Shown here: positions 3,552-13,410 of the stretch, piece after piece | How positions within the stretch are numbered: the stretch's first letter is position 1 | Layout of the letters: the number at the start of each line of letters is the position of its first letter | From: Patescibacteria group bacterium | GTDB taxonomy: Bacteria > Patescibacteriota > Minisyncoccia > 2-02-FULL-40-12 > GWA2-44-9 | Assembly (NCBI GenBank): GCA_038064515.1 | Contig: JBBTSY010000004.1 | Coordinates: 32,585 to 96,584 of the forward strand | DNA length: 64,000 nucleotides | Direction of reading: 5' to 3' | Program-made: the position numbers and the translations under genes | Notes under the pieces: model-generated | Databases searched by the model: none | Seen by the model: only the letters and a program-made list of their open reading frames with translations | What the model was told of the DNA's origin: nothing

Positions 3552-4154
3552 ATGAGGTATCAATTTTTATCTGTAGATCTACAAAATGACTTTGCTTCTG
3601 AAGGTGGCAGTCATTATAAAATCCGACCTTCTATAAACTTCGATAAAGAAGTTCTGTTTCCGTTTCTAAAAGAAAAGGATATTAAAGTCAGCGAGATAAT
3701 TTCCGATTATCGACAACCAAGACCAGGAGATAGGGATGAGAGTTGTGTGCCTGGCACTTGGGGTTATGAATCCATCGTCCCAAAAGAGGTTGTAAAGTCT
3801 CAATGGGTAAAATGCATGAACTCACCGATTTGGACTAGAGACAATATAGGCGATCCAAACAAAATTGCTGGCTTGCCTTACCAAGATACAAAAGGATTTG
3901 GAGAATGGCTGGAAGAGAATATTGGTAAACCAGAAGAAGTAACACCTGTATTATTCGGTCTTACTATTGATTGTTGCGTACTAAGCACCCTTCAGGAGCT
4001 TAGCTGGCGGGGTTATTATCCCTTGGTCTTGAAAGAAGCCGTGGATCATTATCGAGGTACCGAAGAAGCCAAAGAAGCTGTCTTAAAAACACCTATCAAT
4101 AACTGGGCGGATGCAATCACTTGGGACGAACTGAAAGATAAATTGAATGGATAA
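3552..4154 (+). CDS. Isochorismatase-family cysteine hydrolase, paralog A
   Basis: FLSVDLQNDF N-terminal motif and the catalytic-Cys motif GLTIDCCVLST. 200 aa. About 85% aa identical to the ORF at 6623-7225. Confidence 0.75.
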   Translation: MRYQFLSVDLQNDFASEGGSHYKIRPSINFDKEVLFPFLKEKDIKVSEIISDYRQPRPGDRDESCVPGTWGYESIVPKEVVKSQWVKCMNSPIWTRDNIGDPNKIAGLPYQDTKGFGEWLEENIGKPEEVTPVLFGLTIDCCVLSTLQELSWRGYYPLVLKEAVDHYRGTEEAKEAVLKTPINNWADAITWDELKDKLNG

Positions 4155-5917: not shown

Positions 5918-6595
5918 ATGAAAATAGTCGTTATAACCGGAGCTAGTCGGGGAATCGGATTGGCCACCGCCAAGAAGTTTTTAGCTGAAGAGTGGCGAGT
6001 TATCGGCACATATTGGCATACGCCAGTTTCACTCAATGCGCCGAATTTTGTTGCAGTGAAAATGAATCAGGGCAACTTCGAAAGCATTGCCCAGGCTGTG
6101 GATGCGATCAAAGCACACACGCAGAGCATTGATGTGTTAGTGAACAACGCAGGAATCAACCCCGATGGTCGTGATGAGGGAGTAAATTTGAAAAAAATCC
6201 GTGAGACATTTGATGTGAATCTTTTCGGCCTCATTGATATAACGGAGCGCCTTCTTCCGGCTATGACCGCAGGAAGTCACGTCGTGAACATTGATTCTAA
6301 CTACGGGGCGTTCTCTTTTCCTATTGATGACAATACCGCAGTGGGCTACCGTCTCTCTAAGACTGCCCTGAATATGTATACGCGAACGTTGGCATTTCGT
6401 CTCCAAGAGAAAGGCATCGTCGTATCCTCACTTGATCCCGGTTGGGTGAAGACGGATATGGGCATGAGTGTGTCTAGCACGACAGAACAACCCGACCGTG
6501 AGCCGGAACAGCCAGCCCAAGAAATTTATACTCTCGTAACAACCATCACCGAATCGGGATGCTTCTGGAAATTCGGTAAAAAACGCGAATGGTAA
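5918..6595 (+). CDS. Short-chain dehydrogenase/reductase (SDR)
   Basis: TGASRGIG cofactor motif, NNAG, and the catalytic YRLSK (YxxxK). Confidence 0.85.
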   Translation: MKIVVITGASRGIGLATAKKFLAEEWRVIGTYWHTPVSLNAPNFVAVKMNQGNFESIAQAVDAIKAHTQSIDVLVNNAGINPDGRDEGVNLKKIRETFDVNLFGLIDITERLLPAMTAGSHVVNIDSNYGAFSFPIDDNTAVGYRLSKTALNMYTRTLAFRLQEKGIVVSSLDPGWVKTDMGMSVSSTTEQPDREPEQPAQEIYTLVTTITESGCFWKFGKKREW

Positions 6596-6622: not shown

Positions 6623-7225
6623 ATGAACTACCAATTTCTTTCAGTAGACCTACAAAATGATTTTGCTACTGAAGATGGTAAGCATTATAAAGTCCGACCC
6701 TCAATAAACTTTGATAAAGAAGTTCTTTTTCCGTTCCTCAAAGAAAAAAATATTAAGATTGGCGAGATAATTTCTGATTATCGCCAGCCTAGACCAGGAG
6801 ATAAAGATGAAAGTTGTGTCCCCGGAACATGGGGTTATGAATCAATCGTTCCGGAAGAGATTGTTAAATCTCAATGGATCAAATGCATGAATTCGCCGAT
6901 TTGGGTACGAGAAAATATCGGTGACCCAAATAAAACGGCAGGGTTGCCATATCAAGATACTAAAGCATTTGGGGAATGGCTGGATAAGAATTTAGGCAAA
7001 CCCGAAGAAATTACCCCAGTCCTTTTCGGCCTCACCATTGATTGCTGTGTGTTAAGCACACTCCAGGAGCTTAATTGGCGAGGATACTACCCGCTTGTAC
7101 TCAAAGAAGCAGTCGACCATTATCAGGGCACGGAAGAAGATAAGGAAGCAGTTTTGAAGACACCCGTTAATAATTGGGCGGAGGTAGTTGTTTGGGAAAA
7201 ATTGAAAAGTAAAATAAGGCAATAG
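6623..7225 (+). CDS. Isochorismatase-family cysteine hydrolase, paralog B
   Basis: Same motifs as paralog A. The DNA is about 80% identical with mostly synonymous differences, so both copies are intact and under selection. Confidence 0.75.
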   Translation: MNYQFLSVDLQNDFATEDGKHYKVRPSINFDKEVLFPFLKEKNIKIGEIISDYRQPRPGDKDESCVPGTWGYESIVPEEIVKSQWIKCMNSPIWVRENIGDPNKTAGLPYQDTKAFGEWLDKNLGKPEEITPVLFGLTIDCCVLSTLQELNWRGYYPLVLKEAVDHYQGTEEDKEAVLKTPVNNWAEVVVWEKLKSKIRQ

Positions 7226-7303: not shown

Positions 7304-8101
7304 ATGAAGGCGATTTTGATGTATTTGGTGCCGGTGAGCATCATTTTTGTTGCGCCGCCCGTGTCATCGCCTAGCGCGTCGCCAACACCGACAAGCATTG
7401 TGTCACCGATTGAAGATGTGCGCTTGGCATACGTTCAGCGCCAGCTGATCAACTCTGGTTTTGAGGAGGAAAAAGTAAATCAAATCCTCACTGATAGTCG
7501 TCGTGAAATCCTTCCGGAAAAGAGCGTCGCCTACCGCGCACCTAACTGGACGCTGATCAAGCGGAAGATCTACGCGCCTGGTTTCGTCCTGCGGGGGAAA
7601 GACTTCATCGCCGCCAATCCGGAAGCCTTCGACAACATGCGGGAGAGTGGCGTGCCCAAGGAGATCGTCGCGGGCATCATCGCCATCGAAACGGAATTCG
7701 GCAAGAACACCGGCAATACGCCCACGTTTAATGCCATCTACTCGCGCCTGAACCACAAGAAGAGCACTGAAAACTGGCGCTTGGAAGCTGAACGGCTGGC
7801 CGCGCTTTCGAAGTACTGCCTGCGATCCAATCTCGACTGCTACAACATCAAAGGTTCCTACGCTGGCGCGATGGGCATTGTGCAATTCATGCCCGACTCG
7901 CTCATGGATTACGGCGTCGACGGGAACGGCGATGCCTTCGTTGATCTTCAGAATCCCGAAGATGCGGTTCCGAGCGCGGCAAACTTCCTGATAGCCCACG
8001 GTTGGAAACAAGACCAGTACAAAGCGCTCACGCGCTACTACGGCAATCCCGTCGGGTATCCCGAGATTGTTCTCCACTACGCTACGCTCCTGGCAAGGTA
8101 G
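7304..8101 (+). CDS. Lytic murein transglycosylase (MltB/Slt-type), signal-anchored
   Basis: GAMGIVQFMP motif. N-terminal hydrophobic anchor plus a Pro/Ser-rich linker. A TATAAT box at about 7250 and a GGAGG SD precede the ATG at 7304. The gene is visibly more GC-rich than its neighbours. Confidence 0.7.
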   Translation: MKAILMYLVPVSIIFVAPPVSSPSASPTPTSIVSPIEDVRLAYVQRQLINSGFEEEKVNQILTDSRREILPEKSVAYRAPNWTLIKRKIYAPGFVLRGKDFIAANPEAFDNMRESGVPKEIVAGIIAIETEFGKNTGNTPTFNAIYSRLNHKKSTENWRLEAERLAALSKYCLRSNLDCYNIKGSYAGAMGIVQFMPDSLMDYGVDGNGDAFVDLQNPEDAVPSAANFLIAHGWKQDQYKALTRYYGNPVGYPEIVLHYATLLAR

Positions 8102-8356: not shown

Positions 8357-8605
8357 GTGTATGATAGGAACGTAGAGGTTAATCTCAAAACTATGGATGA
8401 CAATCATCAATGTGAGTGTCGGAAGTATCGCCACCGTGGAGCGCAGGGTATGTCGTCGGGAGTGTACGGTTTGGCATTTATCGGTGCCGCAGTTTACTTT
8501 ATTCAGAACGCCGATTCACTCGGAAGCGGGATTATAGGCCTTCTAAAAGCGATTATTTGGCCAGCACTTGTCGTCTACAACCTGCTTGGTTTCCTCGGCC
8601 TGTAG
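8357..8605 (+). CDS. Small membrane protein with a Cys/His-rich N-terminus (hypothetical)
   Basis: CECRKYRHRG followed by two TM helices. The true start may be the internal Met at 8393. Confidence 0.35.
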   Translation: MYDRNVEVNLKTMDDNHQCECRKYRHRGAQGMSSGVYGLAFIGAAVYFIQNADSLGSGIIGLLKAIIWPALVVYNLLGFLGL

Positions 8606-8614
8606 AGCGTTTTA

Positions 8615-9199
8615 CTATTGCATGATTCTCTCGAGCTGTTCCAAAACAATCGGAAGTTCTTTAATGCCGTCGCCTCCGCCGAAGTGGCCTTTGCTGTGTT
8701 CAATTACTGTTTTTGCTTCAAGGCGTTCCTGAAAAAGCTTCTGATTTTCGATAGGAACGAACGGATCATCGTCTGAAAAAATAGCAAAAAATTCATCAGC
8801 GTGCGTGCGCACTTTTTCCCAATCAATGGGCGTTTCAACCCATGGTTTTGCAATTTCTACACTCTCCGGTCCTTCTTCGCGGATCGTCTCTTCATCCAAA
8901 GCTAACCACGGTGCTACGAATACGGCACCACCAACTTTCACTCCCGCAGATAAGGTCGCCAGATAGCGCAGTACCGCTTGGCTACCTACGCTATGCCCCA
9001 CAAAATAGGTATCCGCGTCCGGAGCACCGACTTGCTCGGCAAGAAAGGGAATCCAAATCTCAATCTTTGGGTTATCAGAATCCGGCATTGCAGGCACATG
9101 CACCTCAATCCCCTTTGCTTCCAGCTCTTTTTTAAGCCACGGAAACCAGCCTTCTTCAGGATACCCGCCCCAGCCGTGAATAATAAAAACACGTTTCAT
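8615..9199 (-). CDS. Alpha/beta hydrolase of the YdeN/RBBP9 serine-hydrolase family
   Basis: IIHGWGG, the GHSVG nucleophile elbow and a C-terminal His. 194 aa. Confidence 0.65.
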   Translation of the reverse strand: MKRVFIIHGWGGYPEEGWFPWLKKELEAKGIEVHVPAMPDSDNPKIEIWIPFLAEQVGAPDADTYFVGHSVGSQAVLRYLATLSAGVKVGGAVFVAPWLALDEETIREEGPESVEIAKPWVETPIDWEKVRTHADEFFAIFSDDDPFVPIENQKLFQERLEAKTVIEHSKGHFGGGDGIKELPIVLEQLERIMQ

Positions 9200-9213
9200 T
9201 CAGCTGAAGTAAA

Positions 9214-10293
9214 TCAACGATTCAGCCACGCAGAGTCGTACCATTGCTTAGCAATAGCTCCTAATGTTACGAGGAAAAATACGAAACCTACGATCCAGCC
9301 TGCAAATGGCACGAGATATACGACGAACAGCGCGATAGTGCCTAAGATTGCCGTTTTCCAATTAACCGGAGCCGGATCACGCTTCATACCAACCTTCGCC
9401 AGCCAACTGCCAAACAGAATACCGGAGCCGACAGCCGACAATATCATCCACGCAATATAGCCAAACAAGGCGAGTATCGCGATAGGAATGCCGACAGCGG
9501 TAAAACCCACTAGAATGATTGCGACCGGAACCGCGATCATAACGAGAAATCCACGCAAAAGGCTTGGCCAGAAGTTGTTGATCCCCTGATGGACGACACG
9601 CGGCGCTTTCGTTTTGAAGATGAGCACCAAAAGAATCGCGGTAACGATAGCTAACAACAGCTTCGCAAAGAATGAGAATACGATGAGTGGACCAAAGGAT
9701 TGTCGTCGATCAAATCGCTGGATCTGATTGAAGGTGGTCGTCCCCGTAATACGCGCCCCTGAAGCGATGGTGGCCTCTTTCTTTGATTTGTATGACAGGT
9801 TTCCGGCAACTACGGCAGTATCGCCAAGTGTAACTTGGCCAGAAGTGATATTTACGTTTCCATCCACGCGGCCATCAACAATGACTTGCCCGCCGGCCAC
9901 CACCAGGTCACCGCTCACTACAGAGCCGGATGTTAGATGGACCTGTCCGCCAGCGACAAATAGATCATCAGCGATGGTACCATCTATTGAAACATTACCG
10001 CCGGCAACACGAGCGTCATCGCCTACCGATCCACCAAGGTTGATCGTCCCGCCGGCGAGAATTGCATCCTCTGCAACATCACCAGTCACGGAGAGATTGC
10101 CTCCGACAGCTATCAGATCACCTGAAACCACACCGGAAACGGTAATCGTCCCCGACGCAACATACAAATCGTCTGCCATCGTTTGTCCTCTGGCTAACGA
10201 GTAACTGTCGCCCGCTTTAAACGTAGCCGCCGTCGCAACTACCGGCCACACCAACAACACTGAAACTAAAACCAAACTAATGAGTTTTTTCAT
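9214..10293 (-). CDS. Exported beta-helix (bactofilin/DUF4097-like repeat) domain fused to a C-terminal polytopic membrane domain
   Basis: Signal peptide, then about 150 aa of G-x-V-x-V-x-G-D pentapeptide-like repeats, then 5 TM helices. Confidence 0.45.
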   Translation of the reverse strand: MKKLISLVLVSVLLVWPVVATAATFKAGDSYSLARGQTMADDLYVASGTITVSGVVSGDLIAVGGNLSVTGDVAEDAILAGGTINLGGSVGDDARVAGGNVSIDGTIADDLFVAGGQVHLTSGSVVSGDLVVAGGQVIVDGRVDGNVNITSGQVTLGDTAVVAGNLSYKSKKEATIASGARITGTTTFNQIQRFDRRQSFGPLIVFSFFAKLLLAIVTAILLVLIFKTKAPRVVHQGINNFWPSLLRGFLVMIAVPVAIILVGFTAVGIPIAILALFGYIAWMILSAVGSGILFGSWLAKVGMKRDPAPVNWKTAILGTIALFVVYLVPFAGWIVGFVFFLVTLGAIAKQWYDSAWLNR

Positions 10294-10337
10294 ATATGCT
10301 AATAATATTATTTTTTAAAACTGCTTACAAGTCTGAC

Positions 10338-10362
10338 AAAAAACCGCCTCACGGCGGTTTTT
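10338..10362. terminator. Bidirectional terminator hairpin
   Basis: aaaaaACCGCC-tcac-GGCGGTtttt. Confidence 0.65.
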
Positions 10363-10368
10363 AGAGAA

Positions 10369-10722
10369 CTATTCGTAGCGCAGGGCACGGATCGGATCGA
10401 GGCGGCTGGCTTTGAGAGATGGGAGCGCGCCGGCAATAAGTGCCAACGCGATGCCACCAGCAAGGATGCCCAGGAACGGCAAGATAGGAAAGGCGAGCAG
10501 TTGAAAGCCGACGAAGTCTTTCAGGAAGGTGTTCGTGGCAACACGATTACCTATCAAGCCAATGATGATACTAGAACCAATGCCGAGAGCTGAACCCCAG
10601 AAGCCGATACTCGCCGCTTCCAGAGAAAAAATAGTAAAAATCGTGCGGCGGTTGGCGCCGAGCGCTTTCATGAGTCCGATCTCCGAAGTTCGTTCGTTAA
10701 CTGCGTTTCTACTCATTGTCAA
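10369..10722 (-). pseudogene. C-terminal remnant (TM3-TM4) of an FtsX/MacB-type ABC-transporter permease
   Basis: Carries RTSEIGLMKALGA and the C-terminal ASRLDPIRALRYE FtsX-domain motifs. Only 117 aa remain. There is no room upstream for TM1, the extracytoplasmic domain or TM2, because the M23 gene starts 39 nt away on the other strand. Confidence 0.6.
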
Positions 10723-10760
10723 TGCTGGAAAATATCCTCAACAACCCTTAGAATACCCTT

Positions 10761-11383
10761 GTGATGAAAAAGGCTTTCGTAGTAATCGTAATAGTTATTC
10801 TTACCGCGTTATTTTTCTGGTTTTTCGCCAAGAAGAGCGTAGCGCCAGAGCCACTAGAAACAGGCAAAAACTTTAGCCCGAGTCCGTCGGTAGGCGCGAT
10901 AACTAATGGTAATAAAGCTACCTGGGTTGCGCCCATTAGTAATGTCCGTGAGCGCATCACCAAAAAACCATTCGGTATTTTCGTGTCTCCTGCCGATTCA
11001 CCAGTCAGTCGGAAAAATTTACCGGTTATCATACCGGCGTTGATTTTGAAATATTTCCCGGTGAAGAAAATTCCTCTGTACCCGTGTATGCACTTTGTAG
11101 CGGCCCTTTACTTGAGAAAATTACGGCAAGCGGATATGGCGGCGTCGCTGTTCAAGAATACGAACTAAACAATCAACCGGTTACCGTAGTATACGGGCAC
11201 GTAAAACTTTCGAGCATTTCCATAAAATCCGGTCAGCAACTTAAAGCGGGCGACAAACTTGCCGTTTTGGGCGAGGGATTTAGCGCAGAAACCGGAGGAG
11301 AGCGAAAGCATTTACACATCGGCATACATAAAGGCGCTGGAAGGCGCTGGCGTGGATCTACGGGGATATGTGCAAAACCCTGA
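10761..11383 (+). pseudogene. Membrane-anchored M23 (LytM-type) peptidase, interrupted by a -1 frameshift in an A5 run at 11013-11017
   Basis: Frame 0 gives the TM anchor plus ...FGIFVSPADSPVSRK. The +2 frame continues ...FTGYHTGVDF...VVYGHV...GDKLAVLG...KHLHIGIHKG, a complete M23 core. Adding one A restores a single 207 aa ORF. Confidence 0.65.
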
Positions 11384-11429
11384 CACATTAACCGGCTGGA
11401 TAAACTTTGCCGACTATATACAATAGCGT

Positions 11430-11891
11430 ATGAAATGGAAGCATCCGCCAGTTATTAAAATTTACGAAGCTTTAGGCTCGGTTGCTGACGGCCGGGTAGA
11501 AGTTTCCGGCAATACCGCTAAAGTTTTTTCATCGAGCGGTAATAAATTCTACACTATTTCTTATGATCCGAAAAAACGAGCCATTATGGCCAATGATAAT
11601 GGCTCATATTGGAAGGGCTATCTCGGGTATCCATCTATTGCTTTTCTTCTTAAGATTGGCTTGCTTGAATTCCGTCCGGATTTAGCAAGTCTTCTGAAAG
11701 GAATCCGATGGAAAGACATAAATCAAAAATTTAAGAATGATTTTGGTAAGACGCTAGCATATATTGAGACATTTTTAGATACAGAATATAAGAAGAGTCT
11801 CGCGGATTATGTAAAAATTGTTGATAAGAAAATCAGCGCACTTAATCTTGGCCTACTTGGCACCAAAACTACTCCCCCAGGAGGTTACTAA
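11430..11891 (+). CDS. Hypothetical protein, 153 aa
   Basis: ORF with no motifs I recognise. Its stop overlaps the SD of murB. Confidence 0.4.
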   Translation: MKWKHPPVIKIYEALGSVADGRVEVSGNTAKVFSSSGNKFYTISYDPKKRAIMANDNGSYWKGYLGYPSIAFLLKIGLLEFRPDLASLLKGIRWKDINQKFKNDFGKTLAYIETFLDTEYKKSLADYVKIVDKKISALNLGLLGTKTTPPGGY

Positions 11892-11892
11892 T

Positions 11893-12924
11893 ATGAAAAT
11901 CGGGGAAAATATATTTTTAGCCCCCTACACCACGTTTAAGATTGGCGGAAAGGCTAAATTTTTTATCGAAGCAAAGCACATAGACGACGTAAAGGATGGA
12001 ATTAAATTCGCGGAACAAAAAGGCCTGCCCTTTTTTATTTTAGGTGGCGGAAGTAATATTTTAATCTCCGACAAAGGTTTTTGCGGTCTTGTCATTCGGG
12101 TCAGTATCCGGGGAATTCAACGTGACAAAAATATTCTTCAGATTGGCGCCGGCCACAACTGGGATAATGTTGTCGCATATGCTGTCCGCGAGAATCTCTC
12201 GGGCATTGAGAACCTCTCACTTATTCCTGGGACTATAGGAGGAGCTGTGTTCCAGAATATCGGAGCATACGGCGCCGAACTGTCGGATGTTATCACGTCC
12301 GTTGTTGCGTTAAATACGACAACTGGAAAAATAGAGAAGCTTTCACATAAAGAGTGCCGTTTCGGATATCGCAAGAGTATTTTCCAGGAGCATTCCGGCG
12401 AGCTGGTCATTCTAAAGGCGATAATAAGACTGTCTCCAAAATTTAAACCCAATCTTTCATATCATGATATTAAAGAATATTTCCACAATCGGGCCGTTAC
12501 TCTTAGCACGATAAGGAAAGCTGTCATCAGTATTCGTCGAGCGAAATTGCCGTATCCCGACACAATAGCCAATGCGGGATCATTTTTTAAAAATCCGATT
12601 ATTTCCAATGCCCGAGGCATAACGCTGATAAAAAAGCATCCTGAATTGAAACAAAAGAAGGCGAAAGGCGGCATCAAACTTTCCGCCGGGCAACTCATCG
12701 AACTTACAAAATGGAAGGGCCGGCGTATAGACAATGTCGGGGTATCCGATAAACACTCACTGGTATTGGTAAATTATAATAATGGTACGGCTGAAGAAAT
12801 TGTAAACCTTGCCCGCAAGATTCAGAATAGCGTACTTAGGCGATTTAGTGTTCGCCTCGAACCGGAAGTCGTAATCCTAAATTACAAACCTAGCCGGATA
12901 GCCACTGGAACTGTTATTTTTTAG
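11893..12924 (+). CDS. murB: UDP-N-acetylenolpyruvoylglucosamine reductase
   Basis: FAD-binding N-terminal domain (FKIGGKAKFF, ILGGGSNIL). AGGAGG SD 8 nt upstream of the ATG at 11893. Confidence 0.85.
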   Translation: MKIGENIFLAPYTTFKIGGKAKFFIEAKHIDDVKDGIKFAEQKGLPFFILGGGSNILISDKGFCGLVIRVSIRGIQRDKNILQIGAGHNWDNVVAYAVRENLSGIENLSLIPGTIGGAVFQNIGAYGAELSDVITSVVALNTTTGKIEKLSHKECRFGYRKSIFQEHSGELVILKAIIRLSPKFKPNLSYHDIKEYFHNRAVTLSTIRKAVISIRRAKLPYPDTIANAGSFFKNPIISNARGITLIKKHPELKQKKAKGGIKLSAGQLIELTKWKGRRIDNVGVSDKHSLVLVNYNNGTAEEIVNLARKIQNSVLRRFSVRLEPEVVILNYKPSRIATGTVIF

Positions 12925-12963
12925 TATATTAGTATACAATGAGTTCGAGTATCAATTAAAACT

Positions 12964-13410
12964 ATGTTCATGGATAAATTCATTGAGCAGTTGGATCTGT
13001 ATTTTGGTAAGAAGGCGCCTCAATTACCAAGGGGCATTAAGGAGTTCCTCGTCAAAATCGCACCATACTTAGCAATAATTAGTGTCGCTCTCTTTGCTAT
13101 TAGTATCTTTCCCCTTCTCACTGCCGGTTTCGGCTCTCTAGGCGCGGTTGGATATTACGGCGCTGGATTCTCGAGAACAGGCTTATTTGTCCACTTGATA
13201 GTGTCGGTTATTGTTTCGGTAATCTACCTTATGGCCATTCCGGGGCTCTTCAAAAGATCAATTCGCTCCTGGAACCTCATCTTCTATGCAACACTTATTA
13301 CCGCCATTGGTAGTTTACTTACTTTCAGTATTGCCAGTCTTATCCTCGGTCTACTCATCGGATTCTATGTGTTGTTTCAGGTTCGAACATACTATACGGG
13401 ACAACACTAA
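12964..13410 (+). CDS. Hypothetical 4-TM membrane protein
   Basis: Hydrophobicity pattern only. Confidence 0.4.
   Translation: MFMDKFIEQLDLYFGKKAPQLPRGIKEFLVKIAPYLAIISVALFAISIFPLLTAGFGSLGAVGYYGAGFSRTGLFVHLIVSVIVSVIYLMAIPGLFKRSIRSWNLIFYATLITAIGSLLTFSIASLILGLLIGFYVLFQVRTYYTGQH

Follow-up and report, generated by a model that had tools for sequence, protein, structure and literature searches.

EnvC, one of the hydrolase partners of FtsEX besides PcsB, RipC and CwlO, is a non-catalytic LytM factor that carries a long coiled coil. The periplasmic part of FtsX consists of a Porter domain and an X-lobe that is unique to FtsEX; the X-lobe binds the EnvC coiled coil and occupies the place that the Sabre domain takes in MacB and LolC, and MacB-type and FtsEX systems have a common type VII mechanotransmission architecture (PMC7668044). 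Here we describe a locus of a Patescibacteria group bacterium (contig JBBTSY010000004.1) in which an open reading frame (ORF) of 117 amino acids (aa) that resembles the end of an FtsX permease lies divergently next to a frameshifted gene for an M23 peptidase. The locus is part of a 64-kb stretch of DNA, hereafter the window, whose positions are used as coordinates throughout. An earlier note on this DNA had proposed that a hydrolase-activation module of the FtsEX kind is decaying here, or else that the frameshift is a sequencing error or a slippery site. Our results indicate that both genes have indeed been inactivated, by lesions that recur in other samples, and that the locus very probably records the recent stepwise pseudogenization and loss of two neighboring genes in a groundwater Patescibacteria population. 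The idea of an FtsEX module is not supported, given the scores of the family models, the lack of room for a coiled coil and an adjacency that is not conserved.

The analysis is a sequence-only comparison of the window with contigs of other assemblies (Logan, ENA and NCBI), from which the alleles were read. Contigs of other assemblies that cover the locus are 99.4–100% identical to the window. Four long contigs (L007–L010), with about 90% DNA identity to the window over the locus, carry the intact M23 protein P0002 and served as reference for the ancestral state. Comparing the locus with related genomes, a check proposed in the earlier note, revealed both the intact ancestral gene order and a deletion in the window. 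In L007, the order is DUF8173 (359 aa), permease (419 aa) and ATP-binding cassette (ABC) ATPase (270 aa), followed divergently by M23 (217 aa), UCP014422 and MurB.

A deletion removed most of an ABC operon

Window positions 9197–10704 align by blastn with L007:74–1605 and positions 10705–13406 with L007:3366–6086, while the intervening L007:1606–3365 (1,760 bp) is absent from the window. The deleted segment comprises permease codons 1–308, the entire 270-aa ATPase gene and 21 nt upstream of the ATPase ATG. No microhomology was seen when the breakpoint sequences were compared. The 117-aa ORF (10369–10722, minus strand) that remains matches Pfam PF02687, the C-terminal FtsX-like permease domain (E = 2.7e-17, profile positions 17–120 of 120), over the coupling helix and transmembrane (TM) helices TM3–TM4. 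The description of this ORF as the last 117 aa (TM3–TM4) of an FtsX-type permease thus stands for the C-terminal FtsX-like domain, but only 111 residues (10372–10704) are genuine permease sequence, and they belong to a permease of the MacB/LolCE type, as detailed below. These residues are 97% identical to residues 309–419 of the L007 permease in tblastn, and phmmer matches the remnant to the full-length orthologue with E = 1.6e-65.

The first six residues of the ORF are encoded by former promoter DNA that lies immediately to the right of the junction. The ancestral promoter of the ABC operon reads TTGACA-17-TAAAAT in L007 and TTGACA-17-TATCAT in L001, each with 11 of 12 consensus matches and a TG extension. 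The edge of the deletion lies within the spacer of this promoter; the −10 box was lost, and the −35 box TTGACA (10722..10717) was kept and now provides the TTG “start” of the ORF. In the 117-aa “FtsX” ORF, the remaining TM3–TM4 codons have by chance become joined to former promoter DNA; a terminator-like hairpin at 10333..10355 shows where the ABC operon used to end.

No hidden N-terminus of the permease was found: the minus-strand frames upstream of 10722 are full of stops, and tblastn with the full orthologue finds only residues 309–419 in the 64 kb. This disposes of a full-length FtsX N-terminus encoded upstream, which the earlier note had named as an observation that would overturn it. Its remark that no ftsE lies nearby, on the other hand, was borne out: the window contains no ABC ATPase, and there is no ATPase gene near the remnant because the 1,760-bp deletion took out the partner gene. 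Neither tblastn nor phmmer with full-length orthologues found another permease or FtsX-domain gene, an ABC ATPase or another M23 copy of the same family in the window. An exact-protein look-up of the 117-aa ORF returned no record, and the junction was located instead via the neighboring DUF8173 gene; a metagenome contig scan gave no match to the 28-nt junction sequence.

The M23 gene carries two frameshifts and a missense change

The M23 gene starts at ATG 10764 on the plus strand with the membrane anchor MKKAFVVIVIVILTALFFWFF. Its three-frame translation shows two changes of frame: frame 0 is followed to about position 11010, frame 2 then gives ...EKFTGYHTGVDFE...KHLHIGIHKGAG, and frame 0 resumes with VDLRGYVQNPDTLTGWINFADYIQ* to the end of the gene at 11426. 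The family profile matches the three ORF pieces in this order (Table 1). At the first frameshift, the alignment shows AGTCCGGAAAAATTT in L007, AGTCCGGAGAAATTT in L011 and AGTCGGAAAAATTT in the window, the missing base being one C of AGTCCGG, and the loss breaks the reading of the invariant Pro83-Glu84. The earlier note had described an intact catalytic domain shifted to another frame at an A5 run. The catalytic part does lie in another frame, but the site is the lost C at 11010/11011; the A5 run (11013–11017) is ancestral, unchanged and identical in the intact gene of L007. Extending this run to A6 was tried as a repair and rejected in favor of CC, the former giving Arg-Lys and the latter the invariant Pro-Glu. 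The second lesion, a 10-bp duplication at 11331–11350, had been missed, and the gene had been ended at 11383 after a single frameshift rather than at its true end.

When the C is restored and one 10-mer is removed, the gene encodes a protein of 217 aa that shares 94% of its residues with P0001 and 90% with P0002, two intact proteins of the same length. The repaired protein has a TM anchor (residues ~4–22), a Pro/Ser/Gly-rich linker of ~35 aa and then the conserved domain. It matches Pfam Peptidase_M23 PF01551 (E = 1.6e-10, 41.5 bits versus a cut-off of 28.7) over residues 89–191 and retains all 40 invariant positions of a 29-member alignment, including H90, D94, H146, H183 and H185. The marks of an active-type M23 peptidase (PF01551 above the gathering score, HxxxD and HxH) are therefore present, but only after repair of the two frameshifts. 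As encoded, the frame-0 product stops at 11168 without any catalytic residue, and the internal 99-aa ORF (11084–11383) has no HxxxD motif. As it stands, the gene can yield no active product and is a pseudogene. The Cys133 that is replaced by Tyr in the window is conserved in at least 90% of the M23 family.

Among M23 peptidases of the LytM/lysostaphin type, the window gene shares its domain and its invariant catalytic residues with a membrane-anchored form of ~220 aa that is widespread in Patescibacteria, from which it differs by being broken in two places. Ahead of the domain, and not covered by the Pfam M23 match, this form also has the conserved motif R-[VI]-T-K-K-P-F-G ... S-P-V-x-P-E-x-F. 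The protein search gave 2,735 M23 homologues, and among those with a name, the nearest to the window protein belong, by annotation, to Candidatus Portnoybacteria or Parcubacteria. Solved M23 structures (6yj1, 8s3m and 9gy1) are weak matches to the window M23, and no studied member of the ~220-aa family was found in our searches.

Table 1. Features of the ABC permease remnant, the M23 gene and their lesions in window coordinates.
Feature	Position	Strand	Basis or detail
Terminator-like hairpin and T-run, just 3′ of the permease stop	10333..10355	−	stem 10355..10343, 5 pairs, tail TTTTTTGTCAG
MacB/LolCE-type ABC permease remnant, residues 309–419 (coupling helix, TM3, TM4) and stop	10369..10704	−	Pfam, phmmer, L007 identity, NCBIfam
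Junction of the 1,760-bp deletion	10704..10705		blastn against L007, breakpoint sequences; same junction in L014
Former promoter DNA fused to the remnant	10705..10722	−	retains the −35 box; fortuitous TTG/ATG start and codons 1–6 of the 117-aa ORF lie here
Promoter-like site 5′ of the M23 gene, TGGAAA-17-TAGAAT, retained	10726..10754	+	consensus match only
M23 segment 1: N-terminal anchor, Pro/Ser/Gly-rich linker, start of conserved domain, residues 1–82	10764..11010	+, frame 0	profile positions 1–85, E = 5e-21
Frameshift 1: one C lost, AGTCCGGAAAAA to AGTCGGAAAAA	11010..11011	+	DNA alignment with intact L011 and L007
M23 segment 2: catalytic core with H90xxxD94, H146, H183xH185	11011..11340	+, frame 2	profile positions 84–196, E = 3.5e-64
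G-to-A, Cys133Tyr at near-invariant Cys	11160	+	contig comparison
Frameshift 2: perfect 10-bp tandem duplication, AAGGCGCTGG x2; returns reading to frame 0	11331..11350	+	sequence
M23 segment 3: C-terminal ~25 residues and true stop	11351..11426	+, frame 0	profile positions 192–218, E = 7e-8

Nested alleles in related contigs suggest an order of events

The lesions and their positions, their recurrence in other assemblies and their nesting, like the ancestral gene order, are observed directly in the contigs. L011, a Hainich H52 contig of a 94% identical lineage, has neither the C loss nor the duplication, keeps Cys133 and contains ATPase-side upstream sequence; L007–L010 are likewise without the 10-bp duplication. 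The C loss is present in L001 (GCA_964360865.1), which has no duplication, keeps Cys133 and is undeleted, holding 212 nt of the ATPase 5′ end that are 90% identical to L007. The duplication occurs with Cys133 in L004 (SRR32696708), which covers neither the C-loss site nor the deletion. All three M23 changes are found together in L002 and L003 (ERR3858120 and ERR3858121), two contigs that begin exactly at 10705, and in L101 (Hainich H41), the one further contig that a scan for the C-loss allele returned and in which the deletion is not covered. L006 (Hainich H51) has the duplication, the C-loss site, residue 133 and the deletion being not covered. Four contigs document the ABC side and do not cover the M23 lesions or residue 133: L014 (GCA_964356615.1) has the deletion junction, L013 (GCA_964360865.1) has undeleted sequence for 2 nt past the breakpoint, and L012 and L015 (also ERR3858120 and ERR3858121) stop exactly at 10704.

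At least four further contigs thus share the C loss and at least five share the duplication, under different run, assembly and sample accessions, and the 1,760-bp deletion was seen solely on duplication-bearing haplotypes. The nesting of the M23 lesions suggests that the C loss came first, followed by the duplication and then by C133Y. The undeleted allele appears to be still in circulation. In two runs, contigs break off at the junction from either side, probably because the assembly graph branches there, and ERR3858120 and ERR3858121 would hold both deleted and undeleted alleles. No protein at 87–99% identity to the L007 ATPase, as the ATPase of the undeleted allele, was found in the protein search.

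The strains differ from each other in a mosaic fashion. Compared with the window, L013 shows long identical stretches and dense tracts of mismatches, with 33 differences in 10387–10651 (inside the remnant), about 95 in 5983–6414 and 13 in 8503–9040, and L014 has a comparable tract at 7327–7942. Divergence within such tracts reaches ~22%, with kilobases of perfect identity between them. These mosaic tracts suggest that related strains have recombined homologously or that the contigs are chimeric between strains. Because of them, the undeleted haplotype is not simply the window plus 1,760 bp.

Inactivation appears to be recent

Ratios of non-synonymous to synonymous substitution rates (dN/dS) were estimated by the Nei-Gojobori method. 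The repaired M23 gene has a dN/dS of 0.24 versus L007 and 0.29 versus L011 (range 0.15–0.29), near the values of its intact neighbors, which are 0.19 for UCP014422, 0.17 for MurB, 0.10 for a 148-aa hypothetical gene and 0.06 for DUF8173. The permease remnant has a dN/dS of 0.02 versus L007 (35 synonymous and 3 non-synonymous differences). Both genes stayed under purifying selection for nearly all of the divergence from L007, and they were inactivated recently. Relaxed selection, considered as a mark of old decay, was not seen.

The lost transporter resembles MacB/LolCDE rather than FtsEX

Among NCBIfam models, the full-length permease orthologue (L007:1270–2529, 419 aa) is best matched by ADOP (88.6 bits), LolCE (69.1) and MacB (66.5), and the same three are the best matches of the window remnant. 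The FtsX models (TIGR00439, NF038346 and NF038347) reach 28–34 bits on the full-length permease versus cut-offs of 225–255, in the C-terminal TM region only, and 23–24 bits on the remnant. The full-length permease has ~245 aa between TM1 and TM2 and matches Pfam MacB_PCD (PF12704, E = 1.5e-10, residues 21–206) in addition to PF02687. For the ancestral ATPase (L007:2532–3344), LolD is the best model (240.8 bits), and FtsE scores 197.2 bits, below its cut-off of 264.85. The ancestral L007 genes show the type VII architecture of MacB/LolCE, with PF12704 and PF02687 in the permease and a LolD-like ATPase directly upstream, but all NCBIfam scores are below the cut-offs for equivalog-level membership of MacB, LolC or LolE. 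By these matches, the permease is of the MacB/LolCE type and not a cell-division FtsX.

The comparison with described systems is consistent with this interpretation. As in MacB/LolCDE, the L007 permease has four TM helices, a MacB_PCD periplasmic domain and a separate LolD/MacB-like ATPase, and its C-terminal FtsX-like domain bears the ERxxEIGxxKAxGA coupling helix. Differences from MacB/LolCDE are that no MacA-like adaptor gene adjoins the L007 ABC genes and that the ATPase has an extra N-terminal ~55 aa (270 aa versus ~225 aa in most homologues), an extension kept in the closest orthologues P0122–P0134. With FtsEX, the L007 system shares the branch of the ABC superfamily, the FtsX-like C-terminal Pfam domain and a peptidoglycan hydrolase gene nearby, but FtsX has ~300 aa with a Porter domain and an X-lobe (PMC7668044), versus 419 aa with MacB_PCD in the L007 permease. 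Measured against the partners of FtsEX, the repaired M23 protein has all catalytic residues and, as judged from its sequence, no coiled coil, since the ~35-residue linker leaves no room for one of the EnvC/PcsB/RipC kind. The locus is not an FtsEX-hydrolase activation module.

The ABC-M23 adjacency is not conserved

M23 orthologues (43–62% identity) were examined in 80 species-level loci, the best 80 of 556 confirmed genomic matches with one locus per genome contig. A divergent adjacent ABC-M23 pair is found in none of the 80, nor are MurB, UCP014422 or DUF8173 found near M23 in any of them, and no conserved M23 neighborhood emerges. When all neighbors were clustered, a MacB-type permease was found within 4 kb of the M23 orthologue at seven of the 80 loci. 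These seven permeases are 24–37% identical to the L007 permease, stand at varied distance and in varied orientation, some with a MacA-like adaptor gene, and appear to be distant paralogues. Seen from the ABC side, none of the closest orthologues of the ATPase, P0122 (86%), P0123 (81%) and P0130 (67%), has an M23 neighbor, and the permease adjoins the ATPase in all three. The ABC-M23 pairing seems limited to the immediate clade of the window, and chance adjacency is the simplest reading of this neighborhood.

Two observations on neighboring genes may be added. In a few other Patescibacteria (L066:1415–6648, L046:8724–12216, L027:60–2432 and L093:92–2025), genes for a MacA-like adaptor, an ATPase and a MacB-like permease cluster close to the M23 orthologue and share its strand, either immediately before it or some kilobases after it; in L093, ~20 nt separate the permease stop codon from the start of M23. 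The product of the DUF8173 gene (window 9214–10293, minus strand, 359 aa) combines bactofilin-like repeats with several C-terminal TM segments. The gene directly follows the ABC operon in both the window and L007, and in L096, a more distant contig, the orthologous ABC operon is no more than 1.3 kb away from it; DUF8173 may be a more persistent neighbor of the ABC genes than M23.

Stepwise gene loss and its alternatives

We propose the following course of events. The ancestor would have had a two-gene ABC operon of the MacB/LolCDE type (ATPase 270 aa, permease 419 aa), transcribed leftward from a strong promoter, and, ~80 nt from it and rightward, a gene for a membrane-anchored, catalytically competent M23 endopeptidase of 217 aa. 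The loss of one C at 11010/11011 would have inactivated the M23 gene, after which a 10-bp tandem duplication at 11331–11350, probably by replication slippage, and the replacement Cys133Tyr at a near-invariant residue would have followed. A 1,760-bp deletion without microhomology would then have taken the −10 box of the ABC promoter, the ATPase gene and permease codons 1–308, leaving a locus in which both genes are incapable of encoding a functional product. From the observed alleles we infer how the mutations arose, that expression was lost and that the two genes were functionally independent.

Several points weigh against this course of events or blur parts of it. The coexistence of alleles in ERR3858120 and ERR3858121 and the allele frequencies are read from contigs that end exactly at the junction on both sides, and the independence of the samples is assumed from their accessions, so that some metagenome-assembled genomes may share public reads with Logan contigs. 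The undeleted L013 differs by ~10% from the window over the last 300 nt of the permease gene while its flanks are identical, and instead of a direct ancestor it may represent a haplotype formed by recombination or a contig end chimeric between strains. Since L013 is mosaic, the deletion can be placed in the course of events with less confidence than the M23 lesions, whose order is unaffected. Finally, the search for a replacement M23 or ABC system spanned the 64-kb window only.

The alternative that survives best holds that the two genes were a functional pair, in which the MacB-type ABC system mechanically activated the neighboring M23 peptidase in an FtsEX-like manner, and that the transporter became useless after the death of the peptidase and was then deleted. 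Both members of the divergent pair are broken within 1.1 kb, next to flanking genes that are intact and under purifying selection, and the oldest event is the M23 lesion, with the ABC deletion coming later. The type VII mechanotransmission architecture common to MacB-type and FtsEX systems (PMC7668044) and the MacB-type permeases within 4 kb of an M23 orthologue in seven of 80 other species would also fit such a co-decay. However, the ABC system is not FtsEX by its MacB_PCD domain and its FtsX and FtsE scores below cut-offs, the X-lobe that binds EnvC is unique to FtsX (PMC7668044), and the M23 protein seems to have no coiled-coil domain. Moreover, the closest ABC orthologues (ATPase 86%, 81% and 67%) lack an M23 neighbor, and the ABC genes near M23 elsewhere are distant paralogues in permease identity (24–37%), distance and orientation. 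We therefore consider this co-decay improbable. Doubtful to a similar degree is its narrower form, a lineage-specific pair of a small clade in which a MacB-type ABC “mechanotransmitter” without an X-lobe controlled an active M23 peptidase and the order of loss, first peptidase and then transporter, records their dependency. If true, such a pair would mean that hydrolases can be controlled in the manner of FtsEX by MacB-type systems of Patescibacteria as well.

A sequencing or assembly artefact, in which a gene without lesions was miscalled at an A6 or CC and the deletion arose by misassembly, is very unlikely. Several of the supporting contigs do have very low coverage (1.4–2.7x), the contigs of two assemblies break at the deletion junction, and L006 is visibly chimeric at its start. 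But the C loss and the duplication recur in Logan, ENA and NCBI contigs under several accessions, including Hainich H41 and H51, ERR3858120, ERR3858121, SRR32696708 and GCA_964360865.1, which leaves little of the earlier suggestion of a sequencing error. In addition, the lost base lies outside the homopolymer, base calling does not usually produce a 10-bp tandem duplication, the deletion junction is also present in a second assembly (L014), and alleles with zero, one and two M23 lesions all exist and nest cleanly. In L006, a Hainich contig of 1.5x coverage, positions 1–62 are GC-rich and unrelated to the locus, and this contig end is probably chimeric.

Least credible of all is an M23 gene whose expression is rescued or toggled at the A-run, by programmed ribosomal frameshifting or by phase variation: the frame-0 G AAA AAT at 11012–11018 is loosely like a −1 slippery heptamer, but L007 and L011 are in frame through the site and L007 has the identical A5, so that the run cannot be a recoding signal peculiar to this lineage, the invariant Pro83-Glu84 would be lost to any slip at that place, the change from CC to C, three bases upstream of the run, is not a repeat tract of the phase-variation kind, the unrelated second lesion 320 nt downstream would demand a further shift, and the later C133Y damage fits a dead gene. 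The slippery site of the earlier note is abandoned on the same grounds.

Annotation of the locus and other variable regions

Recent stepwise loss bears on how the locus is annotated. A pseudogene flag is warranted for the “117-aa FtsX-like protein”, which is what the deletion left over, and also for the “M23” ORFs of 135 and 99 aa, two parts of a single pseudogene; an FtsEX function should not be assigned here. The locus offers a small, cleanly resolved case of genome reduction still under way in a population of recombining groundwater Patescibacteria, in which intact, one-lesion, two-lesion, two-lesion plus missense and deletion alleles segregate. It is ordinary gene loss, illustrative and unsurprising, and would open no long-standing question unless the two genes were a functional pair after all.

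The same comparisons revealed other differences within this population and among its relatives. The UCP014422 gene located 3′ of M23 is called at 101 aa in L007:4239–4544 and L010:2384–2689 and 153 aa in L008:2554–3015; this length difference could be a start-site or indel polymorphism. Between positions 13406 and 17431, the window has an APH-type kinase-like gene and two ORFs of ~500 aa, where L007:6086–9392 has three GT4 glycosyltransferase genes, and synteny resumes on both sides. Beyond window position ~5914, L013:4883–6073 (GCA_964360865.1) carries HEPN_Cthe2314 and DpnI-like genes, versus acetyltransferase and methyltransferase genes in the window, and this region appears to be a strain-variable, defense-like islet. 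Two isochorismatase-like genes of 200 aa each, at window positions 3552–4154 and 6623–7225, form a paralogous pair about 3 kb apart with ~78% DNA identity.

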